64,000 nt of DNA, from the NCBI RefSeq assembly GCF_056746865.1, contig NZ_CM163382.1. The stretch is one strand, 5' to 3'. Position numbers and translations under genes: made by a program. The notes beneath the pieces are model-generated. The model was not told the origin of the DNA and searched no databases. It worked only from the letters and a program-made list of their open reading frames with translations. This document shows positions 1 through 53,483 of this stretch, in pieces (position 1 is the stretch's first letter; every line of letters begins with the position of its first letter).

Positions 1-797
1 ATGAGGCGCTTAACCGCGAACTCAATCTTACCTGGCAAAATACGCGGCCCGATCATAATCCGATTGTCGCCGGTAACTGGCCGCCAAAAGCCGATGAAGT
101 GTCAATGGAAGAGGGGCTGGCGAAACGCTTAAACGTTGCCCTCGGCGATACCGTGACTTTTATGGGCGATACCCAGGAGTTCCGCGCTAAAGTGACCAGC
201 CTGCGCAAAGTGGACTGGGAAAGTCTGCGGCCTAATTTCTATTTTATTTTCCCTGAAGGGGCATTAGACGGACAACCGCAGAGTTGGCTTACCAGTTTCC
301 GCTGGGAGAATGGCAACGGCATGTTGACGCAACTCAACCGCCAGTTCCCTACCATTAGCCTGTTAGACATTGGCGCGATTTTAAAACAGGTCGGTCAGGT
401 GCTGGAGCAGGTAAGTCGGGCGCTGGAAGTGATGGTGGTGCTGGTCACCGCCTGCGGTATGTTGCTGTTGCTGGCACAGGTGCAGGTGGGAATGCGTCAG
501 CGTCATCAGGAGCTGGTGGTGTGGCGCACACTCGGTGCGGGCAAAAAACTGCTGCGCACGACATTGTGGTGTGAGTTCGCCATGCTCGGGTTTGTATCCG
601 GCCTGGTGGCCGCAATTGGTGCGGAAACGGCACTGGCGGTACTGCAATCGAAAGTGTTTGATTTCCCGTGGGAGCCAGACTGGCGATTGTGGATTGTTCT
701 GCCGTGCAGCGGTGCGCTGCTGCTGTCGCTTTGCGGCGGCTGGCTGGGTGCGCGACTGGTTAAGGGTAAGGCGCTATTCAGGCAGTTTGTGGGATGA
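1..797 (+). CDS. ybbP: ABC-transporter permease, C-terminal fragment (5' end lies upstream of window)
   Basis: Frame is open from position 3 with no stop; hydrophobic permease-like C-terminus; synteny upstream of selU. Confidence 0.75.
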   Translation, partial: EALNRELNLTWQNTRPDHNPIVAGNWPPKADEVSMEEGLAKRLNVALGDTVTFMGDTQEFRAKVTSLRKVDWESLRPNFYFIFPEGALDGQPQSWLTSFRWENGNGMLTQLNRQFPTISLLDIGAILKQVGQVLEQVSRALEVMVVLVTACGMLLLLAQVQVGMRQRHQELVVWRTLGAGKKLLRTTLWCEFAMLGFVSGLVAAIGAETALAVLQSKVFDFPWEPDWRLWIVLPCSGALLLSLCGGWLGARLVKGKALFRQFVG

Positions 798-804
798 TGA
801 CAGG

Positions 805-915
805 CGTTAGATTGCCTGATGCGCTACGCTTATCAGGCCTACGAGGATCGTGCAATATATTGATTTTGCAAGATTGTGTAGGCCGGATAAGGCGTTTACG
901 CCGCATCTGGCATGA
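805..915. repeat. REP/BIME-like palindromic units
   Basis: gcctgatgcgctacgcttatcaggcctac ... gtaggccggataaggcgtttacgccgcatc, typical REP consensus. Confidence 0.7.
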
Positions 916-1315
916 ACAGTGTGCATTTTGGCAATAAATATGAAACCAACTGTCATGTCGGTTTTTTTAAAGGCCGAAGGTGGTAAACCTTCGGCCTTAG
1001 CTACGTTTCCTCAGTTATTCAATAAACTGACGGATCAGTTCCAGCAGCGCGATTAGCGCCTTAAGAACGATGAGAACTGCCTCTCTCCAAATTAGAGCAC
1101 CAGAATCAGCACCACCTGTATCCTGACCAGGACTTAAAAGTACTTTTCCGCACTGCGGTAATCCCTTGAGGCAGTATCACTACTAGCGTCGGGATTGTAT
1201 CGCCAACATAGCTGTTTGAATATGTAGGCATCCTGACTTATAATTCATTTGCTAGATGAGGACTGTTTCATTTCTGCCCGGAACCACCAAGTCTTGGGCG
1301 GAAAAAATAAAAAAA

Positions 1316-1339
1316 CCGACTGTCATGTCGGTTTTTTTA
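1316..1339. terminator. Bidirectional rho-independent terminator (ccgac-tgtcat-gtcgg hairpin flanked by A- and T-tracts)
   Basis: Perfect stem with A-tract upstream and T-tract downstream; lies just downstream of the selU stop on the minus strand; a near copy occurs at 946-967. Confidence 0.6.
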
Positions 1340-1401
1340 TATCTGTATTCTGGTGCAACCATTCTGTTCTCACGACAATCGCCGTTTCAGAATACCGCCC
1401 A

Positions 1402-2511
<1,110 letters not shown>

Positions 2512-2564
2512 TCAAATCAGCTTGCGCGCTATTTTACGCGCCAACGCGCAAGGAAACTTGATTT

Positions 2565-3491
2565 TTAACTGCGTGGGTTGCCGAAAATTTCTAAAAATCC
2601 GCTGATTTCCGGCCTGCGCTGGGTAAACAAGGTCACAATATCTTCTACCGCTTTGCCGCTGCCAAATTTGCGCCATGCCAGACTCAATGGCGAAGGAGGG
2701 CGCATCGTTGGGATTACCCGGCTGACCAGTTGTTGATTATCGATCATTGACTGGCAAAGTGATTTTGGCAAAAAACCAATGCCAACGCCCGCCAGATGGG
2801 CGGCGATTTTCGTTTCCATATCGGGAACAATAATCTCTTTTTGCCCCGGCAATCGCCAGGCGACGCGTTTGGTTAGTGTTCGGGCGCTGTCTTCAATATT
2901 GACCGCCGGAAAGCGCCGCAACTGTGCTTCTGTTAGCGGCTCTTCAACGTTCGCCAGCGGATGATCCGCCGCCATGACAAAGCGCCATTGCACCGATCCT
3001 AAGGGATCAAGACTAAAGGTATTTGCCAGCGCCTCGGTTCCCGTGACGCCGATAGCCAGTGAAAAACCTTCGTACAATAGCGAGTCCCAGACGCCCATAT
3101 AGATTTGTCGGGAGATGTGAAACTGGGTAAACGGGTAACGTTCATTCAGCCACGCCAGCAGCTGGGCGACGGCCTGGGGGGTGTAGAGCAGGTTGTTGAT
3201 GACAATATTCACCTGGCGTTCCACGCCATCATTCACCTGTTGCAGCTCGCTGGGCATACTTTCCAGCCAGCTCAGCCAGTCTCTGGCCTGGGAAAGTAGA
3301 TGCTCGCCAGCCGCTGTCAACGTCACGCTGCGAGTCGTGCGGAAAAACAGCGCCACTCCGGTATTCTCTTCCAGAAGTTTAATGCGATAACTGATCGTCG
3401 CCGTGGTTTTACACAATCGTTCTGCCGCTTTTGAAAAACTTCCTGTTTCAGCAACCGCAATGAAAGTCCGCAAGGTTTCTGGATCGAACAT
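2565..3491 (-). CDS. allS: LysR-family transcriptional activator of the allantoin regulon
   Basis: 308 aa; N-terminal HTH of LysR type; divergent from allA. Confidence 0.9.
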
Positions 3492-10417: not shown

Positions 10418-11779
10418 ATGTCTTTTGATTTAATCATTAAAAACGGCACCGTTATTTTAGAAAACGAAGCTCGCGTTGTAGATATCGCCGTTAAAGGCGG
10501 AAAAATTGCTGCTATCGGTCAGGATCTGGGCGATGCAAAAGAAGTTATGGATGCGTCTGGTCTGGTGGTTTCGCCAGGCATGGTTGATGCGCACACCCAT
10601 ATTTCTGAACCGGGTCGTAGCCACTGGGAAGGTTATGAAACTGGTACTCGCGCAGCGGCAAAAGGTGGTATCACCACCATGATCGAAATGCCGCTCAACC
10701 AGCTGCCTGCAACGGTTGACCGCGCTTCAATTGAACTGAAGTTCGATGCCGCTAAAGGCAAGCTGACTATCGATGCGGCACAACTCGGTGGCCTGGTGTC
10801 TTACAACATCGACCGTCTGCATGAGCTGGATGAAGTGGGCGTTGTCGGCTTCAAATGCTTCGTTGCGACCTGTGGCGATCGCGGTATCGACAACGACTTC
10901 CGTGACGTCAATGACTGGCAGTTCTTCAAAGGTGCGCAGAAGCTGGGCGAACTGGGGCAGCCGGTGCTGGTGCACTGCGAAAACGCACTGATCTGTGATG
11001 CACTGGGCGAAGAAGCGAAAAGTGAAGGTCGCGTAACTGCCCATGACTATGTGGCTTCGCGTCCGGTATTTACCGAAGTGGAAGCGATTCGCCGCGTACT
11101 GTACCTGGCGAAAGTTGCCGGTTGCCGTCTGCACATTTGCCATATCAGCAGCCCGGAAGGCGTTGAGGAAGTGACTCGTGCACGTCAGGAAGGTCAGGAT
11201 GTTACCTGTGAATCCTGCCCGCATTACTTTGTACTGGATACCGAACAGTTCGAAGAAATCGGTACTCTGGCGAAGTGTTCACCGCCGATCCGCGATCTGG
11301 AAAACCAGAAAGGCATGTGGGAAAAACTATTTAACGGTGAAATCGACTGCCTGGTTTCCGACCACTCACCATGCCCTCCGGAAATGAAAGCCGGCAACAT
11401 CATGGAAGCATGGGGCGGTATTGCCGGTCTGCAAAACTGTATGGACGTGATGTTCGATGAAGCGGTACAGAAACGCGGAATGTCTCTGCCAATGTTCGGC
11501 AAATTAATGGCGACTAACGCAGCAGATATTTTCGGTCTGCAGCAAAAAGGCCGTATCGCCCCAGGAAAAGATGCCGACTTCGTCTTCATTCAGCCGAATA
11601 GCAGCTATGTTCTTACCAATGACGATCTGGAATATCGCCACAAAGTCAGCCCGTATGTTGGCCGTACCATTGGCGCGCGTATCACGAAAACCATCTTACG
11701 TGGTGATGTGATTTACGACATTGAACAGGGCTTCCCTGTTGCGCCGAAAGGTCAATTTATCCTTAAACATCAGCAGTAA
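10418..11779 (+). CDS. allB: Allantoinase
   Basis: 453 aa; amidohydrolase metal-binding motifs (DAHTH). Confidence 0.9.
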
Positions 11780-20799: not shown

Positions 20800-21615
20800 A
20801 TGACGATCATCCATCCTCTGCTTGCCAGCCGTAGTGCACCGAATTATCGCCAGTCCTGGCGGTTAGCGGGCGTGTGGCGGCGGGCGATTAACCTGATGAC
20901 GGAAAGCGGTGAATTGTTAACACTGCATCGTCAGGGTAGTGGTTTCGGCCCCGGAGGATGGGTGCTTCGCCGCGCGCAATTCGATGCGTTATGCGGTGGA
21001 TTATGCGGCAATGAACAACCGCAGGTTGTGGCACAAGGGATTCGCCTCGGACGTTTCACGGTTAAACAGCCACAGCGTTATTGTTTGCTGCGTATTACGC
21101 CGCCTGCGCATCCTCAACCGCTTGCAGCTGCATGGATGCAACGCGCGGAGGAAACCGGGCTTTTCGGGCCACTGGCGTTGGCGGCAGGCGATCCGCTTCC
21201 TGCTGAATTACGCCAGTTTCGCCACTGTTTTCAGGCCGCGCTCAATGGCGTGAAGACCGACTGGCGGCACTGGCTGGGCAAAGGTCCGGGATTAACGCCG
21301 AGTCATGATGACACGCTGAGCGGAATGCTGCTGGCGGCCTGGTATTATGGCGCTTTAGATACGCGCTCCGGTCGCCAGTTTTTTGCCTGTTCCGACAATC
21401 TTCAACTCGTTACCACAGCGGTGAGCGTCAGTTATTTACGTTATGCCGCGCAAGGATATTTCGCCTCGCCACTCCTGCACTTTGTCCATGCTCTGAGTTG
21501 CCCGAAACGTACCGCTGTTGCGATTGATTCGCTGCTGGCGCTGGGGCATACGTCAGGGGCAGATACGCTGCTGGGGTTCTGGCTTGGTCAACAATTATTA
21601 CAAGGAAAACCATGA
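20800..21615 (+). CDS. ylbF: Uncharacterized protein YlbF (DUF2877-like)
   Basis: 271 aa from ATG 20800 ([12 protein letters not shown]...); track ORF from 20707 overlaps ylbE and is likely overextended. Confidence 0.75.
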
Positions 21616-22505
21616 AAACACTGGTTGTGGCTCTTGGGGGCAACGCCTTACTCCAGCGCGGTGAGGCGCTGACGGCGGAAAATCAATATCGCAATATCGC
21701 CAGTGCTGTACCCGCGCTGGCACGCCTGGCCCGTTCTTATCGGCTGGCGATTGTTCACGGCAACGGGCCGCAGGTGGGGCTGCTGGCATTGCAGAATCTG
21801 GCGTGGAAAGAAGTGGAACCGTATCCGCTGGATGTGCTGGTGGCGGAAAGCCAGGGGATGATTGGCTATATGCTGGCGCAGAGCTTGAGCGCACAGCCGC
21901 AGATGCCGCCTGTCACGACGGTGCTGACGCGCATTGAAGTTTCGCCTGATGATCCGGCATTTTTACAGCCAGAGAAGTTTATCGGTCCGGTTTATCAGCC
22001 AGAAGAACAAAAGGCACTGGAAGCGGCTTACGGCTGGCAGATGAAACGTGATGGTAAATACTTGCGCCGGGTGGTGGCGTCTCCGCAACCGCGTAAAATT
22101 CTCGACAGCGAAGCCATCGAGTTGTTGCTCAAAGAGGGGCATGTGGTGATTTGCAGTGGTGGTGGCGGTGTGCCTGTGACGGACGACGGAGCAGGGAGCG
22201 AAGCAGTGATTGATAAAGATCTCGCCGCTGCGTTGCTCGCCGAGCAGATTAACGCCGATGGGCTGGTGATCCTCACCGATGCTGACGCGGTTTATGAAAA
22301 CTGGGGAACGCCGCAGCAACGCGCCATTCGCCGTGCCACACCGGATGAGTTAGCGCCATTTGCCAAAGCCGATGGTTCGATGGGGCCGAAGGTAACGGCG
22401 GTGAGTGGCTATGTCAGAAGCCGTGGCAAACCTGCGTGGATTGGGGCGTTATCGCGGATTGAAGAGACGCTGGCGGGCGAAGCGGGGACCTGTATTTCGC
22501 TGTAG
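21612..22505 (+). CDS. ybcF: Carbamate kinase-like protein
   Basis: 297 aa; amino-acid-kinase fold ([13 protein letters not shown]...); start overlaps ylbF stop. Confidence 0.85.
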
Positions 22506-22509
22506 TCGT

Positions 22510-22620
22510 AGGCATTAGACATTTGTGCCTGATGCGACGCTTGACGCGTCTTATCAGGCCTACAATGGGTACCGGAGCGTTAAGCCGGATAAGGCGTTCA
22601 CGCCGAATCCGGTAAGAATA
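22510..22620. repeat. REP/BIME palindromic units
   Basis: gcctgatgcgacgcttgacgcgtcttatcaggcctac ... gccggataaggcgttcacgccgaatccggtaag. Confidence 0.7.
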
Positions 22621-22631
22621 TGTGCACCAGG

Positions 22632-23699
22632 TTAACTGAACTTACTCTGCGCCCAAATCACGCCGCTGGCATACTCTGGCGGCAGCAGCGGGATTAAGGC
22701 TTCCAGCGTCGCGGTCAGACGCGATGTGTCGCTGTCGGTCAAATTCAGATGCCCCACTTTACGGCCCGGACGGACTTCTTTGTCGTACCAGTGCAGATGC
22801 ACCAGCGGCAATTTCAGCCAGTCATAATTCACATCGCTACCAATCAGGTTGATCATCACCGACGGACTATTCACTACCGGTTGCGGTAACGGCAGATCGG
22901 TAATCGCCCGCAGATGCAGCTCAAACTGGCTGATGCTGGCACCGTTTTGTGTCCAGTGACCGCTGTTATGCACACGCGGAGCCAGTTCGTTGATCAGCAG
23001 ACCTTGCGGGGTGACAAAACACTCCATCGCCATCACGCCCACATAGCCCAGCTCCTGCATAATCGCCGACAGCATCTCTTCGGCTTGCGCTTGCTGCTGC
23101 GCATTGGCCTGCGGGAAAGCGACGCTGGTACGCAAAATACCGTCCTGATGCAGGTTATGCGTCAGCGGATAAAACACGGTGCTACCATCAAAGCCGCGCG
23201 CGCCAACCAGCGACACTTCGCCAGAGAAGTTAATGCCCTGCTCGACAATACATTCGCCGTAACACTCTGCCGGTAACTGTTCGGTTTCATCGGCACGTAA
23301 ACGCCATTGACCGCGACCGTCATAGCCACCAGTGCGACGCTTAACAATCGCCAGCTCACCTAAACGATCAAACACCGCAGGCCACTCGCTGCGATCGGCA
23401 AGTAACTGCCACGGTGCGGTCGGCAGGTGGAGCTTATCGAAAAGCTGTTTCTGAGTCAGACGGTCGGCAATAATCGGGAACACATCGCGGTTCACAAAGG
23501 CCGGATGGCGCGCCAGTTCGCGGGTTAATGCGGTTTCCGGCCAGCGTTCGATCTCAGCGGTAATCACGCTTTGTTGAAAAGGCACCGCCGCCGGTTCAGC
23601 GTCCAGTCCGACCGGCCAGACAGCAATGCCTAACGGTTCGCCTGCCTGACGCAGCATACGGCCTAACTGCCCGTTACCGAGGACGCAAACCTGTTTCAT
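22632..23699 (-). CDS. purK: N5-carboxyaminoimidazole ribonucleotide synthase
   Basis: 355 aa; ATP-grasp; start overlaps purE stop. Confidence 0.92.
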
Positions 23700-38566: not shown

Positions 38567-39247
38567 TCATCGCCATTGCTCCCCAAATACAAAACCAATT
38601 TCAGCCAGTGCCTCGTCCATTTTTTCGATGAACTCCGGCACCATCTCGTCAAAACTCGCCATGTAATTTTCATCCCGCTCAACCACGACATAATGCAGGC
38701 CTTCACGCTTCATTCGTGGGTCATAGTTGGCAAAGTACCAGGCATCTTTTCGCGTCACCCACATGCTGTACTGCACCTGGGCCATGTAAGCCGACTTTAT
38801 GGCCTCGAAACCACCGAGCCGGAATTTCATGAAATCCCGGGAGGTAAACGGGCATTTCAGTTCAAGGCCGTTGCCGTCACTGCATAAACCATCGGGAGAG
38901 CAGGCGGTGCGCATACTTTCGTCGCGATAGATGATCGGGGATTCAGTAACATTCACGCCGGAAGTAAACTCAAACAGGGCTCTGGCGTCGTTCTCGTACT
39001 GTTTTCCCCAGGCCAGCGCCTTAGCATTAACTTCCGGAGCCACACCGGTGCAAACCTCAGCCAGCAGGGTGTGGAAGTAGGACATTTTCATGTCAGGCCA
39101 CTTCTTTCCTGAGCGGGGCTTTGCTATCACGTTGTGAACTTCTGAAGCGGTGATGACGCCGAGCCGTAATTTGTGCCATGCATCATCCCCCTGTTCGACA
39201 GCTCTCACGTCGATCCCGGTACGCTGCAGGATAATGTCCGGTGTCAT
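38567..39247 (-). CDS. exo: Lambda-type 5'-3' exonuclease (Red alpha)
   Basis: 226 aa, near-identical to lambda Exo as I recall it ([40 protein letters not shown]...). Confidence 0.95.
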
Positions 39248-41095: not shown

Positions 41096-42028
41096 CTATT
41101 CGATTTTTTTAACCATGTAGTTACGTCGTGATGTTCCTAATCTTTCATTGTGAATCTCAGAAACGCTTACTACGAGCGATATTCGTTCACCAACTTTATA
41201 TTTACTTTGAATTTCTCCTAACATATCAATCGGATAAGAAGCCTTTATTTTTCCAAGCTCGCTTGCAATCTCCAATTTCCCGTACATGGATAAAATAGCA
41301 AGTTCGCCTGATATATGCTCATCCGGTAGCTGAATGACCTTCGTTAAAGCTAAGCGAGCATTCAGTTTTTTTATATCTTCTGAAGAAATTGACACTTGTC
41401 TGGTACCATCACTTAAAGGTCCAATCCAAGTAAGATCAAAGTTAAGACTATATTTTTCGCACTCATTTATGATGTTTTTTAGGTTAGCTGTTGATTGCGA
41501 ACCAATTTCGGCAATTTTAGCCGTGAATGTTTCTTCATCAATGGATGAGAGTAGTGCAAAAATCTCCTTAACAGCATGACTGGATACTGTTTCGATGAGC
41601 TCGCAAGAACCAGTAGAAAAAGTAACACCTAACTTCGTCGAACCTGGACGCAAGTCTGCCAATCTCATGTCTAATGATTTTTTAACATCAATCGGCACAC
41701 GACTAGAATCTTTCCCAGATCCAAGTCGGTAAACTGCTTTCTGTACAAGGGATGCGAGATTACCTGAAATTACAGATAGAATATCTAACGGAATAGACCC
41801 GAAATCGACCAAAACACCTTTTAATCTCAACTCCATGAAATCACGTAAAGGATGTTGGTTATCGATTGCACGTTGTCTCTCTCGGAGATCGCTCAGATGG
41901 GAGTCAAGTGATCTAAATATAATGTCATCAGCAAATGATCTCCCCTTATTTTGAGCAAGCAGATCCACATCGCGTTGAATGAACGCAATTCGCTCCTTGA
42001 GGGAGTTGAATGTTTTTTCTTCGCTCAT
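41096..42028 (-). CDS. Hypothetical protein, distal gene of the rexAB-position operon
   Basis: 310 aa; AT-rich; start overlaps stop of upstream 157-aa gene (ATGA); no recognisable family. Confidence 0.6.
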   Translation of the reverse strand: MSEEKTFNSLKERIAFIQRDVDLLAQNKGRSFADDIIFRSLDSHLSDLRERQRAIDNQHPLRDFMELRLKGVLVDFGSIPLDILSVISGNLASLVQKAVYRLGSGKDSSRVPIDVKKSLDMRLADLRPGSTKLGVTFSTGSCELIETVSSHAVKEIFALLSSIDEETFTAKIAEIGSQSTANLKNIINECEKYSLNFDLTWIGPLSDGTRQVSISSEDIKKLNARLALTKVIQLPDEHISGELAILSMYGKLEIASELGKIKASYPIDMLGEIQSKYKVGERISLVVSVSEIHNERLGTSRRNYMVKKIE

Positions 42029-42498
42029 AACATTACCCTCACGAGGCCTTTAGGATTCTCCTTCCGATCAAAACCAAACCACCCTCTCCAGTAACTTCGC
42101 CTTTCACTATAATCGATTTCTGGATGATTTTCAGGCAGCAAAAGAACGTCAATGCTGTAGTTTTCTTTAATAAAATCTCTATTTAACAATGAGCTGACCA
42201 ATGGCATCAGCGTGTTTGGCAAAGAGTTTAGGGCCAAATAATCGACGACCACGAGTATATCTATGTCATCAGGTTCAGGTTTCTCTGTAGTGAATGAACC
42301 ATCGATCCACACTTCAGAGAAACATAGACACTGCTGATTAACAAGTTTAAATTGCTCAATAAGCTGTATAAAATTACAGTATAGCATACTTCTTCTAACG
42401 GATTTTGGGAAGGTGTCGACACAAAGAGACTTGATGCCATCACTATCCATATCATGAAATCCTGCTGTAAGAAGAGGTGGGAAGCTAGGCTTTTCCAT
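42025..42498 (-). CDS. Putative minimal nucleotidyltransferase-fold protein, proximal gene of the rexAB-position operon
   Basis: 157 aa; GS-x9-DxD motif (WIDGSFTTEKPEPDDIDILVVVD) typical of the Pol-beta NTase superfamily; AT-rich. Confidence 0.55.
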   Translation of the reverse strand: MEKPSFPPLLTAGFHDMDSDGIKSLCVDTFPKSVRRSMLYCNFIQLIEQFKLVNQQCLCFSEVWIDGSFTTEKPEPDDIDILVVVDYLALNSLPNTLMPLVSSLLNRDFIKENYSIDVLLLPENHPEIDYSERRSYWRGWFGFDRKENPKGLVRVML

Positions 42499-42579: not shown

Positions 42580-43269
42580 TTAACCATGCTTCCTGTACGT
42601 CTGCGGCATGCTCCCAATAACCTTACCGAAGATGAACACCCGGTTCATCTCGTCTTTCTCGATCGGGTCCCACGGTGAGTAGCTTTTGTTATCAGAGATG
42701 ACCAGCAGCTTATCCTTCATCATTTGCAGGCGCTTTACATGGGCTGTGTCGTCGTACAGAAACGCATAGATACCATCACCGTCGAAAGATTTAACTGTGA
42801 TATCAACGAACAGCAGATCACCTGGTTCGATCGTTCCTGACATGCTGTCACCACGCACGTTAATGATGCGGATATTTTCCGCCTTCCTACCATCGAACAT
42901 GTGACGAGCATCGTCAAACGAGTACTCAACCGAGCGTAGAACTTCTACAAACTCACGGTTGATGACTCCCGGCCCAGCACTGACTTCTATATCAAGAACG
43001 TCAATCTTGAAGTATTTGGAATGGCTGACAGTTGATTGTATTGGTTGCACTGTACTGTCTGACATATTTCCAACGCCAGAAGATAACCATTCTGCGCGCA
43101 CACCCAAAGCGTTCGCGATCTCCACGATTTTAGTTGTTTGATTAGCTTTCCCTGTTTCGATTTTCTGAATAGCAGCCTGGCTAACCCCGACCAAATCCCC
43201 AAGCGCCTTTTGTGTAAGGCCTCGCGCTAATCTGGCTTCTTTAAGTCTTTCTGAGAGTGTTGTTTTCAT
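42580..43269 (-). CDS. cI: CI-like prophage repressor (HTH plus S24 LexA-like autopeptidase)
   Basis: 229 aa from MKTTLSERLKEARLARGLTQKALGDLVGVSQAAIQKIE; C-terminal S24 region (GDSMSGT ... K); divergent from cro. Confidence 0.85.
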   Translation of the reverse strand: MKTTLSERLKEARLARGLTQKALGDLVGVSQAAIQKIETGKANQTTKIVEIANALGVRAEWLSSGVGNMSDSTVQPIQSTVSHSKYFKIDVLDIEVSAGPGVINREFVEVLRSVEYSFDDARHMFDGRKAENIRIINVRGDSMSGTIEPGDLLFVDITVKSFDGDGIYAFLYDDTAHVKRLQMMKDKLLVISDNKSYSPWDPIEKDEMNRVFIFGKVIGSMPQTYRKHG

Positions 43270-45927: not shown

Positions 45928-46226
45928 CGGGCAAAGAGGCAATTATTCATTACCTGGGGACGCATAAGAGCTTCTGTGCGCAGGACGTTGCTGCGGTAAC
46001 AGGCGCAACAGTAACCAGTATAAATCAGGCTGCGGCTAAAATGGCACGGGCAGGAATCTTGGTCGTTGATGGTAAGGTCTGGCGAACGGTGTATTACCGG
46101 TTCGCTACCAGGGAAGAACGGGAAGGAAAGGTGAGCACGAATCTGATTTTCAAGGAGTGTCGCCAGAGTGCCGCGATGAAACGAGTGTTGGCAGTGTATG
46201 GAGATATGAACTTAAACTTGCTGTGA
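45924..46226 (+). CDS. ren: Ren (Rex-exclusion resistance) protein
   Basis: 100 aa, matches lambda Ren (MTGKEAIIHYLGTH...). Confidence 0.88.
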   Translation: MTGKEAIIHYLGTHKSFCAQDVAAVTGATVTSINQAAAKMARAGILVVDGKVWRTVYYRFATREEREGKVSTNLIFKECRQSAAMKRVLAVYGDMNLNLL

Positions 46227-46474
46227 CGGTTTTCATCGGTAACACACCATGTAATCTAGCAGTCAGCTTAGAAATAGGAGCGGCAGTTAAAGATTTTTCA
46301 GTTAGTAGAAAATTACTGTTATTGCAGGGATCTAATCACCGGAGAGTCGTTCCATTTGTCTTATGATTACCTGAAGTCCGTTAGTTCGTTGGTAATCACC
46401 GTTTTTGTTAGAGAAGTAAGCATCGCTGACAAAATATTCTCAACGATGCCTGCTTTATTGCTACTACAAATTAA

Positions 46475-47977
46475 TTAAATTGCATCTGCAAACTCTGGGG
46501 TTTTTCGCTCAGGTATAATTGATGAGTTGCTGTTGTCACTTTTTTTATTTTCATGATTACGAATAGCCAATGACTCATTAAAGTCTTTTGCGACTGCTGT
46601 CTCAATAAATTCAATTTCTGAATCAGAGTGTTTTTTAACAGCTTCTTTGATCTCATCCAGAGTAACATAGAAAAACTCTTTTCTACGATTTACAAGATTG
46701 ACTCTCTTTTTATCGAAGACATCATGTAGTTTTTTTTCTAATGATGGAGCGTCCTCCGAATAAATCATGGCATGTACATCAAAAATAAAAGGAACAGATG
46801 CATCACCGAGCTCATTTACACGGTCTTGCGGATCAAGACGTCGTGTCATGCCTATTTTATAAACATTCTCCCCAAAAGAACCTATGTTCGAAATAATATA
46901 AACATGACCTTGTTTGGTTTGTTGTGCCATGGATAATGCTCTTTGATGCTTTGATTCAGCCTGCGACAAACTCTGTTCTAGTTCGGCAATGCGATTTTCG
47001 AGGCGCTGCTTCATGTCACCAGTAACTTTTTCCATTTCCTTTCTTGCAGCTTCAATTGCTTTTTTATAACGGCGCTCTTCTGCCTCTGCGTCTTGCATGG
47101 CCTTTTCTATTTCTCGTTGTGCACGCTCCTCCTCTCTCATTTGTGCCCTTATTTCTGCCTGTTCTTCTTTTTCTTTCTGTTTTTGCTCACGATATTCATG
47201 GGTAAGCCACAATTCCTCAAGTTTTTTATTGAGGTATTTAGTGTTTATATATATGTGATTTTGCTCGTTTAGTTTATTTATGGCCTCAAATGCCTTTGTG
47301 ATGCGTTCTTCCATTTTAGTGATGTTTTTCCACGTGCAATTGCTAATTGCAGCATCACATTCATTATTAAATGCTCTAGTAGTTAGCCTGATATTTCTGT
47401 CTGTCATTTTTTTACCCTCTGCTCGAGAGCCTTCAACAGTCCATTGGGTTGTACAATATACTGCGCCAGAGTGGGTTTTATCCCGCAGCATTAATTTCTG
47501 TTCATCCCTGATGGATTTTATTTTGTTTTTAAATTGCTCTGAATCTTCAAAATTAAAATGAGGTTCGTAAAATCCTAGTTCGGCTAGCTCAACATCTTCT
47601 GAATAAATAGAAATTTGCCTTACTAGTTTATCATATATTTCTTTCTTCTCTTTATAAGTTCTTCTTAGCTCTTGGATTTGTTTATTGATACCATCCATTT
47701 TTTCAATGGTGTTTGTTAGTTCATTATTGGCATTTTCTTTTACTTTTAGGGATTCTTCTTTTATTATGGAGCATTCTTGCTCTGTTTTCTCAATAAGCTT
47801 CTTACATTCTTCTTCTACATTAAAATAATCTGCAAAGCGAGATTTGTATTCTTCATTTTTTTGATTGCTATCACTTAATTCTAATTGTATTTTTTTGATG
47901 CGTTTGATTGCAGCTATATAAAGAACAAGAACAACCAATAAAAATATGATTGCAAGTAATAGAGGAGTTTGAGTCAT
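46475..47977 (-). CDS. Membrane-anchored coiled-coil protein with C-terminal T5orf172/GIY-YIG-like domain (DUF4041-like middle region)
   Basis: 500 aa; N-terminal TM helix (LLLAIIFLLVVLVLYIAAI); long E/K/R-rich coiled coils; C-terminal GHVYIISNIGSFGENVYKIGMTRRLDPQDRVNELGDASVPFIFDVHAMIY; antisense to flanking phage genes; strongly AT-rich. Confidence 0.7.
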   Translation of the reverse strand: MTQTPLLLAIIFLLVVLVLYIAAIKRIKKIQLELSDSNQKNEEYKSRFADYFNVEEECKKLIEKTEQECSIIKEESLKVKENANNELTNTIEKMDGINKQIQELRRTYKEKKEIYDKLVRQISIYSEDVELAELGFYEPHFNFEDSEQFKNKIKSIRDEQKLMLRDKTHSGAVYCTTQWTVEGSRAEGKKMTDRNIRLTTRAFNNECDAAISNCTWKNITKMEERITKAFEAINKLNEQNHIYINTKYLNKKLEELWLTHEYREQKQKEKEEQAEIRAQMREEERAQREIEKAMQDAEAEERRYKKAIEAARKEMEKVTGDMKQRLENRIAELEQSLSQAESKHQRALSMAQQTKQGHVYIISNIGSFGENVYKIGMTRRLDPQDRVNELGDASVPFIFDVHAMIYSEDAPSLEKKLHDVFDKKRVNLVNRRKEFFYVTLDEIKEAVKKHSDSEIEFIETAVAKDFNESLAIRNHENKKSDNSNSSIIPERKTPEFADAI

Positions 47978-48276
47978 TCGTGCTATTCCTTACGGACAAT
48001 TTAAGACGTTTTGTATTAAATCCTGTTCAATGTGTATGCGGGTGATTGCTACCGCTTACAATCTTCATAATTATCAGTTAGATAGACTCGCTAGTAAATA
48101 ATTTCATTTTTTGCAATATTCTTATTGAATATTTCAATTTATGAAATGAACTCTTTATCCTTTCAAGGTGAAAGGTTTCTTCTTCGGAAATATTTGCTCT
48201 CGTGTGACGTATAAAGACCTTTGATTTTCAAAAATCAGTAGGGAATAATATAGTTACTGTCGGCCTGAACACCCGG

Positions 48277-48375
48277 TGGTGGGGTTGCGCTAAACGGGGA
48301 CGTTTATGCGCACACACAATCCAAACTCTCATCTCCATTCACAGATGCAGAAATGCACCTACGATTTTTTACATT
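48277..48375 (+). repeat. Direct repeat copy 1 (~90% identical to 50221-50315)
   Basis: gcgctaaacggggacgtttatgcgcaca...cacagatgcagaaatgcacctacgatttttt. Confidence 0.85.
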
Positions 48376-48467
48376 CGGTGTTTTACTTCGACAGCCAGAA
48401 TTGGGAGTCTCTATTCGTCTGGCGGCTAAAGGTGATATGGAAATCGTTATGTTTTGGCCTGAGGTAG
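48306..48467 (+). CDS. YlcH-like small ORF, divergent paralogue (within direct-repeat copy 1)
   Basis: 53-aa ORF MRTHNPNSHLHSQMQKCTYDFLH... homologous to the 33-aa ORF at 50240; possibly non-functional. Confidence 0.3.
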   Translation: MRTHNPNSHLHSQMQKCTYDFLHSVFYFDSQNWESLFVWRLKVIWKSLCFGLR

Positions 48468-48789
48468 TTGTAACTGTTGTAGCAGCTATGGATGTGATCA
48501 TCATGGTGTCCATTTACTGGGGTTGACGACATGATTTATCCGGCGCTATATTCTGTGCGTTGCCGCAAAATCGGCACACGGGATTGGCGTCCCGGGATAC
48601 TACTCAACGCATACCGCGTTAAGCGGTTTTTTTGTGCGCTAAGCACGGCTATGCCCAAATTATGGTGGGCTGTGTGAGGGCTTCTTCGGAAGCGCCGGGT
48701 TTGAGTAGCCGGTTACGCCAACCTTACACAGTTCACCACCAGTCGATTGGCGTCGTTGGTGGTGATGGTTAACCTGATGAGGTGATACT

Positions 48790-49398
48790 ATGACTACTCA
48801 ATTAGCATTCCACAAAACGACGTTTACCCCGATTTGCCACAATAACAGAATTTGGCTTACTGCCACTGAAGTTGGTTTAGCACTGGAATATGCGGACGAT
48901 AAAGCAGTTCAGCGCATTTACTCTCGGCACTCAGATGAATTCACAGATATGATGACAAGGGTGGTCAAAGTGACCACCCCTCGTGGAATGCAGGAGTCTC
49001 GAGTATTTAGCCTTCGCGGAGCCCATTTGATCGCCATGTTTGCTCGTACTCCTGTGGCCAAAGAATTCCGCCGCTGGGTTCTGGATATTCTCGATCGAGA
49101 AGTTCAACAATCCCCAATCACAAAACAATTCACTGATAACGAACTTTGCACACTCGCCTGGTTATGGCGAGCAAGTGATACGATGTTAACCGCCTGCCAG
49201 AACGTTACGCCCCTTCTTCAGGTCGCAGAGCATCGCGAAGCAGGTAGATTCACTTCAATCGAACAAGAATATCCTCGGATACTCAACAGGGCGCGAGAAA
49301 TCCTTGCCAGAGAAACGGCGCATGTAAAATTCCAACCGTGGCAGGATGATAAGTGGAGTCGTGTGTTACCATATTTCCGTCAGAATCTGTTGCAATAA
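48790..49398 (+). CDS. Bro-N/antirepressor-like protein
   Basis: 202 aa; N-terminal Bro-N-like region (LAFHKTTFTPICHNNRIWLTATEVGLALEY...SRVFSLRGAHLIAMFARTPVAKEFRRWVLDIL). Confidence 0.6.
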   Translation: MTTQLAFHKTTFTPICHNNRIWLTATEVGLALEYADDKAVQRIYSRHSDEFTDMMTRVVKVTTPRGMQESRVFSLRGAHLIAMFARTPVAKEFRRWVLDILDREVQQSPITKQFTDNELCTLAWLWRASDTMLTACQNVTPLLQVAEHREAGRFTSIEQEYPRILNRAREILARETAHVKFQPWQDDKWSRVLPYFRQNLLQ

Positions 49399-49416
49399 AG
49401 TCACTAGTTAGAAATA

Positions 49417-49458
49417 CTGCCAGCATTCTGCGATGACGGAAGTGCTGGCATTTTTTTT
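49417..49458 (+). terminator. Rho-independent terminator after the Bro-N gene
   Basis: ctgccagcattc...gtgctggca hairpin followed by T8. Confidence 0.7.
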
Positions 49459-49633
49459 GGTAATGTGCGAGTCCATTTCATAAAATACGGGTACTGGAAC
49501 TGGACGATATAATCTAAAAGATACCATTATCAGTAGCATTAAAATCGCTATGTGCCGATACGGATATAAATTATATTGATTGTTCACATACCTTATTGGA
49601 TATTACTGAGGGGTGTTTATATAAGGTGTAACG

Positions 49634-50143
49634 ATGATGTGGAACTTTGACAGTGCCGACTTAAGTGCAATAGCAGCAGGCATTTCTGCGTTTGGCACAT
49701 TAGCCGCAGCGGGGTCGGCGCTTGCAAGTTGGTGCACGTCAAAAAAAGCGCTGCAGCTACAAAATAGAGTTTACCTTTATGAGTCTTTAAAGGCTTGCGC
49801 TGAGAGAGCCAATTCATCAGCTAAAGATAAGCGCGGATCTGAATGGAGCGTTAATGATGCAGCGGATATCATCAGGTGCCTAGTACGGGCGATGGAGCTC
49901 ATCAAGCAGGATAGCCAGCAGAAAGAAGGTAATCAGGCATTAATGTTGAAACAGTACTTTGTTAATCTGCTAATAATGGAACTGTACGAGGAAGTTCATA
50001 ACGGTGATGCGGCTGATTCTGTTTTTAAAAGTACGGAACCTACACAAGTACTTGATAACTTATGGAGCAAATGGCAGGAGGCTATAGCTTTTTTTGATAT
50101 TTGGAATTACCCAGTTGCGACTGAGGAAGACTTGGCAGACTAA
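49634..50143 (+). CDS. Hypothetical protein with N-terminal hydrophobic helix
   Basis: 169 aa; AT-rich upstream region; no recognised family. Confidence 0.5.
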   Translation: MMWNFDSADLSAIAAGISAFGTLAAAGSALASWCTSKKALQLQNRVYLYESLKACAERANSSAKDKRGSEWSVNDAADIIRCLVRAMELIKQDSQQKEGNQALMLKQYFVNLLIMELYEEVHNGDAADSVFKSTEPTQVLDNLWSKWQEAIAFFDIWNYPVATEEDLAD

Positions 50144-50220
50144 TTTTCAGCACATTTGATTTCCAATAATCAACCAGCCATAATCATGCCATTGGAGCTT
50201 GAACAACTCCGGTGACTTCT

Positions 50221-50315
50221 GCGCTAAACGGGGACGTTTATGCGCACATACAATCCAAACTCTCTTCTCCCTTCACAGATGCAGAGATGCACCTGCGATT
50301 TTTTGCATCCAGCGT
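50221..50315 (+). repeat. Direct repeat copy 2
   Basis: See copy 1. Confidence 0.85.
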
Positions 50316-50341
50316 TTGACCTCTGCGGAGGTGAAGCGTGA
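50240..50341 (+). CDS. ylcH: Small protein YlcH-like (33 aa)
   Basis: [33 protein letters not shown]; stop overlaps the ybcN GTG start. Confidence 0.5.
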
Positions 50342-52400: not shown

Positions 52401-53483
52401 TTAGAACTGGTAAACCAGACCTACAGCAACGATGTCATCAGTATCAATACCAGCTGTTTTGGTAAACTTACTATCGTCAATTAAGTTGATTTTGTAATCA
52501 ACAAAAGTGGACATGTTTTTATTAAAGTAGTAAGTAGCACCGACATCGACATACTTGACTAAGTCTCGGTCACCATGAACACCAAGGTCTTTACCTTTTG
52601 ACTGAAGGTAAGCAACAGATGGGCGCAGACCGAAGTCAAACTGATATTGTGCTACTGCTTCAAAGTTTTGTGCTTTGTTTGCAATATGGTTATTACCAAA
52701 AACGGTCATATTCTGAGTTTCAGAATATGTGGTAGCCAGATAGATATTGTTCGCATCATATTTCAGGCCTGCAGCCCATACTTCCGCATTTTTGCCGGAG
52801 GCATTGAATTTGCTCTTACCATAGGCGACCTGACCGTCAGTGCGATCTGATTTAGCATAGGTTGCACCCACGCCGAATCCTTCATACTCATAAGTAGTGG
52901 AGAAACCGAAACCATCACCATTGGCTTCAGTTACGTCAGTGCGGTCATTTTTACCCTGATACTGAGCAGCAAAGTTCAGGCCATCGACCAGACCAAAGAA
53001 GTCGTTGTTACGATAAGTTGCAACACCAGTAGTGCGACCAGTCATGAACACATCTGTTTGGGTCCAGGTATCACCACCGAATTCTGGCAGGACGTCAGTC
53101 CACGCACCGATGTCGTATGCTACACCGTAGTTACGGCCGTAATCGATTGAGCCGTAATCACCAAATTTCAGGCCTGCAAATGCAAGACGGGTTTTGTCTT
53201 TGGAAGAACCTTGAGATTCAGCGCGGTTGCCTTTGAATTCATATTCCCACTGACCGAAACCAGTCAGTTGATCGTTGATTTGGGTTTCACCTTTGAAGCC
53301 AAGACGGGCATAAGTAGTATCACCATCATCTGCATCATTAGAGGAGAAGTAGTGCTTAGCATTAACTTTCCCGTACAGATCCAGCTTGTTACTGTCTTTA
53401 TTATAAATTTCAGCTGCCTGAGCAGACATCGCCATCAGTACTGATGCAGCTACAGCAGAAATTGCCACTGTTAATTTTTTCAT
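52401..53483 (-). CDS. nmpC: General porin (OmpC/OmpF/NmpC family), uninterrupted
   Basis: 360 aa; signal peptide [23 protein letters not shown]; C-terminal ...GLVYQF. Confidence 0.88.

Follow-up and report, generated by a model that had tools for sequence, protein, structure and literature searches.

An antisense gene between ren and the nin region of a lambda-like prophage very likely encodes the known anti-phage nuclease SNIPE (PD-λ-1)

The window analysed here, 64,000 nucleotides of contig NZ_CM163382.1 (RefSeq assembly GCF_056746865.1), carries a lambda-like prophage at the argU/DLP12 site. The genes O, P and ren lie to the left of the interval of interest and the nin-type genes ybcN, ninE, ybcO, rusA and quuD to its right, all on the plus strand. 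A preliminary description made from the letters had placed a single antisense, low-GC open reading frame of 500 amino acids with AT-rich flanks between these two groups, and both the coordinates and the GC content confirm it. RefSeq gives WP_000195116.1 as the protein at identical coordinates. The features of the interval are:

~46190..48285, no strand: AT-rich cargo insert (moron) in the ren–nin slot, drawn from the end of ren homology, a 104-nt repeat and the GC profile
46418..46451, minus strand: stable hairpin 24-57 nt past the stop codon of the gene (ΔG -22.9 kcal/mol, z = -4.2, 0 of 200 shuffles as stable)
46475..47977, minus strand: coding sequence assigned to snipe (PD-λ-1), 500 amino acids plus stop, from the open reading frame list
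46628..46921, minus strand: C-terminal GIY-YIG-type nuclease (T5orf172/MUG113), residues 353-450
46736..46738, minus strand: codon of the catalytic residue E414
46922..47221, minus strand: long helical linker rich in Glu, Lys and Arg, residues 253-352 (AF2 helices 246-317 and 321-352)
47222..47386, minus strand: Pfam DUF4041 (PF13250), residues 198-252 (i-E = 1.2e-19; model positions 2-56 of 56)
47222..47542, minus strand: globular middle domain, residues 146-252 (AF2 pLDDT 94-98)
47579..47905, minus strand: membrane-proximal helical stalk, a poorly conserved 'adapter' region, residues 25-133 (one AF2 helix, 4-133)
47906..47962, minus strand: N-terminal transmembrane (TM) helix, residues 6-24 (LLLAIIFLLVVLVLYIAAI; top Kyte-Doolittle 19-residue window, mean 3.37)
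48070..48098, minus strand: candidate σ70 promoter TTTACT-17-GATAAT (9/12 in a consensus scan), about 90 nt upstream of the ATG

The reading frame has a GC content of 35.1% (28% at third codon positions) against 49.6% for the window, and its flanks reach 38% on the left (46227-46474) and 34% on the right (47978-48276). Glutamate (13.6%), lysine (11%) and isoleucine (8.2%) are abundant in the protein, as first described. The start is the earliest that the frame allows and is preceded, at about 10 nt, by an AAGGA Shine-Dalgarno sequence. At such a composition, the chance of a 500-codon open frame is about 3e-18 per start and about 4e-13 for the whole window.

Comparison with other lambdoid phages and prophages bears out the proposal that this DNA is a moron. 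Homology to ren breaks off some 20-35 nt short of its stop codon; in other prophages it ends at query positions 214-230 of 250, corresponding to about 46190-46206 of the window. On the right, the AT-rich DNA ends where the 104-nt direct repeat starts (48286), and other, unrelated cargo is found at the slot in PhiR12_1, PhiR30_1, PA28 and strain 95-3322. When the empty site was sought as the 3' end of ren fused to the DNA right of 48285, that exact junction was found in no genome or phage, the closest being strain 95-3322 with about 600 bp of different DNA there; the insert boundaries are approximate for this reason. The position between ren and the nin genes was given correctly as an interval and can be refined, since a separate cassette (48546-50143) stands between snipe and the nin genes. 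This cassette comprises an isrK/C4 RNA, an Ant-like (antirepressor) gene and a gene of 169 amino acids. At its rexAB position the same prophage has a candidate pair, PDC-M63A/B (41096..42498).

The AlphaFold model of the protein (AF2, pLDDT 89.4) resolves a TM/stalk helix, a globular domain, a helical linker and an α/β domain. Residues 6-24, the predicted TM helix of the preliminary description, are helical in this model, and a hydrophobic N-terminal segment scoring at least 1.6 recurs in 79 of 89 homologues. The long coiled coils that had been read from the sequence stand as long helices in the model (4-133, 246-317 and 321-352), and only in that form. Residues 1-120 share a mean identity of just 14% with the homologues, among which conservation is lowest at the N-terminus and highest in the nuclease. 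Profile searches against Pfam, which had been proposed as a check, recovered DUF4041 as listed above, MUG113 at residues 373-449 (7e-19) and T5orf172 at 357-449 (6.9e-17); at E <= 0.001 Pfam reported no domains beyond DUF4041 and the nuclease. The peptide strings cited for the earlier domain calls are found in the protein. A full-length Foldseek search returned nothing significant, and sequence and profile searches of the PDB gave no structurally solved relative. NCBIfam gave nothing but coiled-coil noise below threshold (18.6 bits; cutoff 300), and the weak PADLOC matches to LmuB, ZorA and JetC (E 0.03-0.3) are coiled-coil noise too.

The C-terminal domain has the α/β core of the GIY-YIG superfamily, a three-stranded sheet flanked by helices, together with the motif residues of that fold (Tyr…Tyr/Lys-Ile-Gly, Arg, a metal-binding Glu and Asn). 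These residues, HVY360IIS … VYK374IG376MTR379R380 … LE414 … N427/N430, are all invariant in the homologue alignment; E414 and the rest of the GIY-YIG-type set show no exception in the 89 homologues (38-51% identity). Roles of the individual residues in catalysis follow the established GIY-YIG scheme. For E414 the catalytic role rests on a published E414A mutant (PMC13190303).

Taken together with the profile matches that follow, this architecture makes us highly confident that the gene is SNIPE (PD-λ-1), a single-gene direct anti-phage defence system carried as a moron by the lambda-like prophage at argU/DLP12. The PADLOC profile PDLC03976 (PD-Lambda-1) aligns over its positions 1-485 of 491 with residues 1-485 of the protein (E = 1.9e-198), and PDLC03977 (E = 7e-195) and PHROG 1847 (E = 7e-196) match comparably. 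The marks of the SNIPE family, namely the full-length profile, an N-terminal membrane-targeting region, DUF4041 and a GIY-YIG nuclease with E414, are all present. The proposal of a single-gene defence moron is upheld, as are its parts: the membrane anchor, the long helices, DUF4041 and the T5orf172/GIY-YIG nuclease at the C-terminus. The accompanying statement that no characterised system has such an architecture does not hold, as PD-λ-1 (PMC9519451), later named SNIPE (PMC13190303), is characterised. The gene is real, but it is not new: the discovery of PD-λ-1 and its validation against λvir date from 2022 (Vassallo et al., Nat Microbiol; PMC9519451), Saxton et al. (2026, Nature 653:861; PMC13190303) described its mechanism under the name SNIPE, the PADLOC model has been in place since 2023, and newer RefSeq records read 'SNIPE associated domain-containing protein'.

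The agreement with the tested allele is close. The experimentally tested gene of ECOR26 (RCP76574.1; contig QOXL01000020, 49060..50562) has a coding sequence of 1,503 nt, equal in length to the window frame (PMC9519451). HHpred domains published for tested PD-λ-1 (197-252, 357-448 and 373-449; PMC9519451) are practically those found by Pfam in the window protein. All nine residues named by Saxton et al. are present at their positions: E223, N250, L253 and W257 in the middle-domain/DUF4041 part, E264, K305, I308 and T319 in the linker, and E414. The protein shares 500 amino acids, TM helix, DUF4041 and GIY-YIG domain with SNIPE/PD-λ-1 of ECOR26, and no difference was detected in what was compared. 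Across the 2,050-nt region, phage PhiR26_1 differs by one mismatch, at 48169 outside the coding sequence, and its identical coding sequence is annotated 'PD-lambda-1' by the depositors. The naming pattern PhiR12/PhiR26/PhiR30 suggests that PhiR26_1 originates from ECOR26; a literature search on its origin returned only an unrelated Pseudomonas phage with the same name. From the length, the domain coordinates, the nine residues and the PhiR26_1 record, we infer that the window protein would be 100% identical to RCP76574.1. An exact-sequence look-up found the protein to be common, with RCP76574.1 not among the entries.

The gene seems to have regulatory signals of its own. Vassallo et al. cloned the gene with 282 nt of upstream DNA, including its native promoter, and 62 nt of downstream DNA in a promoterless vector (PMC9519451). 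The candidate σ70 promoter sits inside this upstream segment and the hairpin at 46418..46451 within the downstream segment, where it is the probable terminator of the snipe transcript. A terminator-like hairpin on the plus strand (48159-48175) was rejected, being no more stable than its shuffles (z = -0.2). Given a probable promoter and terminator of its own and an orientation opposite to the pR early operon, the gene is probably expressed in the uninduced lysogen, where pR is repressed.

Could this copy nevertheless be silent, or have a narrower or different target range, so that it contributes little immunity? The promoter is only a 9/12 consensus match, and small differences can matter: near-identical PD-Lambda-1 homologues can be inactive, as in a pair from S. 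thermophilus that is 98.5% identical and completely different in activity. IS5 splits the gene in two E. coli genomes, which implies that its loss is tolerated. Against this, the coding sequence is intact and identical in at least 1,000 contigs and 109 complete genomes (>=99% identity), which argues for maintenance, and the 282 nt that drove defence are present, with only the base at 48169 differing from PhiR26_1. Identical DNA occurs in 131 of 5,426 complete E. coli genomes (~2.4%). We consider a silent or diverted copy highly improbable.

The published mechanism very probably applies to exactly the window protein. The reported phenotypes, membrane localisation, protection against λ and other siphoviruses and nuclease-dependent cleavage of injected DNA, come from the plasmid-borne ECOR26 gene (PMC13190303). 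By topology assay the N-terminus is periplasmic and the remainder of the protein cytoplasmic, and the N-terminal region is proposed to set specificity and to associate with ManYZ (PMC13190303). Defence is lost when DUF4041 is deleted, a domain that favours DNA binding and makes contact with the tape-measure protein; E264, K305, I308 and T319 are sites of specificity-enhancing mutations (PMC13190303). In the window protein, the N-terminal region would likewise associate with the mannose permease ManYZ, the route of λ DNA entry, and DUF4041 would bind DNA and touch the tape-measure protein of an infecting siphovirus. The C-terminal nuclease, with E414 as its catalytic residue, would then cut the phage genome during injection. 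Such direct defence should leave the infected cell able to keep growing.

The earlier description had left abortive infection as one option, in which infection would release or activate the nuclease, leading to degradation of host DNA and death of the cell before phage maturation. The chromosome is in principle a possible substrate of a GIY-YIG nuclease, and protein lacking the TM segment is in fact highly toxic, locates to the nucleoid and causes double-strand breaks (PMC13190303). The membrane-anchored protein, however, shows no intrinsic toxicity, even if host DNA is tethered to the membrane. Labelled phage DNA is broken down as it enters, the few genomes that escape go on to replicate normally, and prophage induction proceeds undisturbed; PD-λ-1/SNIPE is classed as direct defence in the published work (PMC13190303). 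Growth and survival of infected SNIPE cells at high MOI and degradation of phage DNA only are reported for the plasmid-borne gene. We give an abortive mechanism scarcely any credence and retain direct defence by SNIPE.

The nuclease domain has other relatives among phage and defence proteins. PDC-S57, a PADLOC candidate (E = 1.7e-18), and phrog_16524 (E = 3.9e-17) match residues ~354-468, PHROG 36333 shares the C-terminal T5orf172/GIY-YIG domain, and PHROG 8430 also spans the helical linker (residues 262-477, E = 3e-48). In PDC-S57, phrog_16524 and phrog_36333 only the nuclease part matches, leaving TM helix, stalk and DUF4041 unmatched. All four are shorter (profiles of 199-439 positions) and are candidates or families without assigned function. 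Homing endonucleases (the I-TevI class and T5orf172 HEGs) are soluble and find their target by DNA sequence, whereas SNIPE, anchored in the membrane, recognises its target by its location at the injection site (PMC13190303). That the gene is a selfish, free-standing T5orf172 homing endonuclease, spreading by cutting alleles that lack it, can be virtually dismissed: phage homing endonucleases sitting at boundaries of genetic exchange often have T5orf172 domains (PMC10448857), the gene does lie at a recombination breakpoint, and in PA28 the ren–nin slot is taken by a gene with the annotation 'homing endonuclease', but the protein has a TM anchor, a stalk of ~130 residues and DUF4041 in place of the soluble make-up and sequence-specific DNA-binding module of that class, the gene is antisense to the operon with promoter-like and terminator-like signals and an AT-rich composition foreign to the phage, its family is chromosomal and widespread in bacteria, and a defence phenotype has been demonstrated (PMC9519451, PMC13190303).

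Zorya, Kiwa and superinfection exclusion proteins such as HK97 gp15 likewise act at the inner membrane around genome injection, and HK97 gp15 resembles SNIPE in being prophage-encoded and tape-measure-dependent (PMC13190303). They have no sequence relationship to the window protein (best PADLOC ZorA match, E = 0.12). SNIPE differs from these membrane defences as a single protein with its own nuclease, which admits the DNA but cuts it (PMC13190303).

In the lysogen, snipe would protect against heteroimmune or virulent λ-like phages and other siphoviruses. The tape-measure protein of the carrier prophage type is 97.4% identical to λ gpH. It is tempting to speculate that convergent pR transcription could silence snipe on induction, that the gene mainly serves kin-directed exclusion of heteroimmune λ-like phages, and that the ren–nin slot is a general lambdoid defence hotspot alongside the PDC-M63 pair at the rexAB position; as a joint proposal this is doubtful. 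The native arrangement may add something to what is known, since the published work used a plasmid-borne gene.

The correct label for the gene is SNIPE/PD-λ-1, not 'DUF4041 domain-containing protein'. That a membrane-anchored defence nuclease could be deduced from raw sequence alone shows that reading of this kind works, but is not a discovery. The lysogen is predicted to be resistant to λ-like phages and to some other siphoviruses. SNIPE separates self from non-self by location, not by sequence or modification, and cuts DNA only while it enters via the phage injection apparatus; this discrimination is already published for the family, and almost certainly for the allele in the window.

By its sequence, the antisense ORF between ren and the nin-region genes is the already characterised SNIPE, first described as PD-λ-1, and hence is not new. 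The feature is real, and the preliminary description correctly sensed a defence nuclease. The window protein matches PD-Lambda-1 in PADLOC-DB over its full length (E = 1.9e-198 and 7e-195) and is assigned to PHROGs family 1847 (7e-196). PD-λ-1 was one of 21 systems recovered by functional selection across 71 E. coli strains (Vassallo et al. 2022, PMC9519451). The tested gene came from ECOR26 (protein RCP76574.1), in a clone of the 1,503-nt CDS plus 282 nt of upstream and 62 nt of downstream sequence, and its HHpred domains lie at residues 197-252, 357-448 and 373-449 (PMC9519451, supplementary tables). The window protein agrees with it in CDS length and in domain coordinates, determined here with Pfam. 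Saxton et al., who renamed the system SNIPE (bioRxiv 2025; Nature 2026;653:861; PMC13190303), name residues E414, N250, L253, W257, E223, E264, K305, I308 and T319, and all nine (9/9) are present at the same positions in the window protein. It is very likely, on these sequence comparisons, that the window protein is identical throughout to the tested ECOR26 allele.

The ORF (46475..47977, minus strand, 500 aa) begins at the first available start codon, with an AAGGA Shine-Dalgarno sequence ~10 nt upstream; at the local base composition a 500-codon open frame would arise by chance at ~3e-18 per start. Its GC content is 35.1% (GC3 28%) against 49.6% for the window, and its non-coding flanks are 248 nt at 38% GC and ~300 nt at 34% GC. 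The neighbours are all on the plus strand, with O, P and ren on the left and nin-type genes on the right, so that the proposed AT-rich, antisense single ORF in this interval is borne out. A σ70-like promoter (48098→48070) matches the consensus at 9 of 12 positions, and a significantly stable hairpin (46418-46451, z = -4.2) lies 3' of the stop codon; both are inside the fragment that gave defence from a promoterless vector (PMC9519451).

The protein architecture was also described correctly on each point that could be checked, save for one caveat. The supposed N-terminal transmembrane helix coincides with residues 6-24, where the protein is most hydrophobic, and Pfam matches were obtained for all three proposed domains. 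The coiled coils find their sole support in long helices predicted by a confident AlphaFold2 model (mean pLDDT 89.4), in which residues 4-133 form a helix, 146-245 a globular domain, 246-352 further helices and 357-450 an α/β domain.

Pfam domains of the SNIPE protein
Residues 198-252, DUF4041, 1.2e-19
Residues 357-449, T5orf172, 6.9e-17
Residues 373-449, MUG113, 7e-19

Among 1.84 billion representative proteins searched, 3,971 score as relatives at E ≤ 1e-3, 1,520 of them at E ≤ 1e-30, and the matches mostly begin at query residues 40-120. In the alignment from which the model was built (89 sequences, 38-51% identical to the window protein), the invariant positions are concentrated in the C-terminal domain: G357, Y360, S363, N364, G366, G369, K374, G376, R379, R380, P383, R386, E389, D400, H402, E414, N427, N430 and E434. 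Mean identity is 14% over residues 1-120, 48% in DUF4041, 46% in the helical linker and 68% in the nuclease, and a hydrophobic N-terminal segment is present in 79 of the 89 homologues. These values agree with the published account, in which the nuclease is conserved, DUF4041 has diversified moderately and the membrane-targeting N-terminus varies.

The 2,050-nt SNIPE region is 100% identical in more than 100 complete E. coli genomes; it occurs in 131 of 5,426, without exception on the chromosome, and the exact protein sequence is found in at least 1,000 contigs. Newer RefSeq annotation calls the gene 'SNIPE associated domain-containing protein'. It is unlikely that the window prophage carries a silent copy, because the gene is perfectly conserved across many genomes and the functional upstream fragment is present. 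In two E. coli records (NZ_CM144251.1 and NZ_OZ392478.1), IS5 splits the gene into two fragments annotated under the RefSeq name, so SNIPE can be lost by insertion. Among phage records, this DNA occurs only in Escherichia phage PhiR26_1, where the gene is labelled 'PD-lambda-1'. Across 46227-48276 the phage differs from the window at one position outside the CDS, 48169 (T in the window, C in PhiR26_1); this base is 5' of the candidate promoter and falls in a hairpin loop, the hairpin being statistically non-significant. The names of related records (PhiR11, PhiR12, PhiR30, PhiR42, PhiR46 and PhiR70, some propagated on ECOR13) suggest ECOR-derived phages, and PhiR26_1 therefore probably derives from ECOR26, the published source strain.

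Work on the plasmid-borne ECOR26 gene locates SNIPE to the inner membrane, with its N-terminus on the outer side and the remainder cytoplasmic; defence is abolished by E414A and by ΔDUF4041, and without its transmembrane helix the protein is toxic, nucleoid-associated and breaks DNA, indicating that membrane anchoring prevents autoimmunity (PMC13190303). Adsorption is unaffected, 32P-labelled λ DNA enters and then undergoes E414-dependent degradation, and λ genomes already inside the cell, as in prophage induction, are spared (PMC13190303). By proximity labelling, SNIPE is associated with ManYZ and with the λ tape-measure protein, in which escape mutations also lie. Restriction extends to most BASEL siphoviruses, without dependence on ManYZ, and to no myovirus or podovirus; DUF4041 mutations increase defence against Bas14-18 (PMC13190303). 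Streptococcus thermophilus is also protected by PD-Lambda-1 homologues, in an allele-specific manner. SNIPE is thus a direct defence; single-cell and labelling results in the literature contradict the abortive-infection mode first offered as an alternative. The membrane anchor, the DUF4041 domain, the apparently autonomous antisense transcription unit and the published demonstration of defence likewise argue against a selfish T5orf172 homing endonuclease and contradict that reading.

On the E. coli chromosome the window maps to the allS–argU–DLP12 region, and its identity to strain 2017C-4173W12 is 99.6-100%. The window lacks that strain's IS5 in the allantoin gene cluster (junction 10430-10433) and its IS21 in the prophage YqaJ/exo gene (junction 38874-38877), so the recombination module is intact. 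The prophage is complete and of lambda type: intD, bet/gam/kil, cI/cro/cII-like genes, O, P, ren and the nin region are followed by quuD, a porin gene, the lysis genes, and head and tail genes of λ type. The porin gene (OmpC/OmpD-type, ~52401..53483, minus strand), flanked by quuD and the lysis genes, is another antisense moron and corresponds to nmpC of DLP12. At the rexAB position, immediately 3' of the cI-type repressor gene (42580..43269), two co-oriented genes form a candidate defence pair by PADLOC match; PhiR26_1 carries different cargo there.

Candidate PDC-M63 pair
Within 41096..42498, minus strand, 157-aa DUF6932 protein, PDC-M63A (PADLOC E = 7e-43; PHROG 9194)
Within 41096..42498, minus strand, 310-aa protein, PDC-M63B (PADLOC E = 4e-42; PHROG 6603), no Pfam domain found

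The stretch from ren to nin serves as a slot for variable cargo. The window ren gene, which encodes a 100-aa Ren, resembles its homologues in ~3,600 E. coli genomes and 150 phages only as far as 20-35 nt before the stop codon (window ~46190-46226), so its last codons belong to the inserted segment.

Content of the ren–nin interval in other elements
PhiR12_1, NinA directly
PhiR30_1, acyltransferase and lipoprotein
PA28, homing endonuclease
Strain 95-3322, small hypothetical gene

A 104-nt direct repeat, 89% identical (48286-48389 and 50220-50323), begins at the right edge of the SNIPE AT-rich DNA. Its two copies bracket a cassette that is distinct from SNIPE and stands between it and the nin genes, and the repeat has the appearance of a recombination linker through which cassettes are exchanged in this slot. 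The first copy overlaps a 53-aa ORF (48306..48467), hypothetical in PhiR26_1, and the second a 34-aa ORF preceding ybcN. Within the cassette, the isrK and C4 RNAs sit directly upstream of the Ant gene, an arrangement (48546..49398) resembling the C4/IsrK–antirepressor modules of P1 and Gifsy-1.

Features of the repeat-bracketed cassette
48546-48598, plus strand, c4-a1b1 targets (Rfam, below gathering score)
48561-48633, plus strand, isrK (Rfam, 58.7 bits)
48658-48743, plus strand, C4 antisense RNA (Rfam, 74.8 bits)
48790..49398, plus strand, Ant/P22AR-type anti-repressor gene, 202 aa (PHROG 245, 2.8e-56)
49634..50143, plus strand, 169-aa hypothetical protein of unknown function (PHROG 1779, full-length, 1.7e-102), no PADLOC match

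The tape-measure protein of the carrier prophage type (same prophage in NZ_CP030768.1, excerpt 20949..23504, outside the window) is 97.4% identical to λ gpH, and that of PhiR26_1 is 97.8% identical to it; the SNIPE carrier itself belongs to the phage class that SNIPE targets. We assign low probability to regulation of SNIPE by antisense pR transcription, to kin-directed exclusion, and to the ren–nin slot being a lambdoid defence hotspot beside the PDC-M63 pair. In the lysogen, SNIPE would be transcribed as its own unit, antisense to the repressed pR operon, and would protect its host from heteroimmune or virulent siphoviruses.
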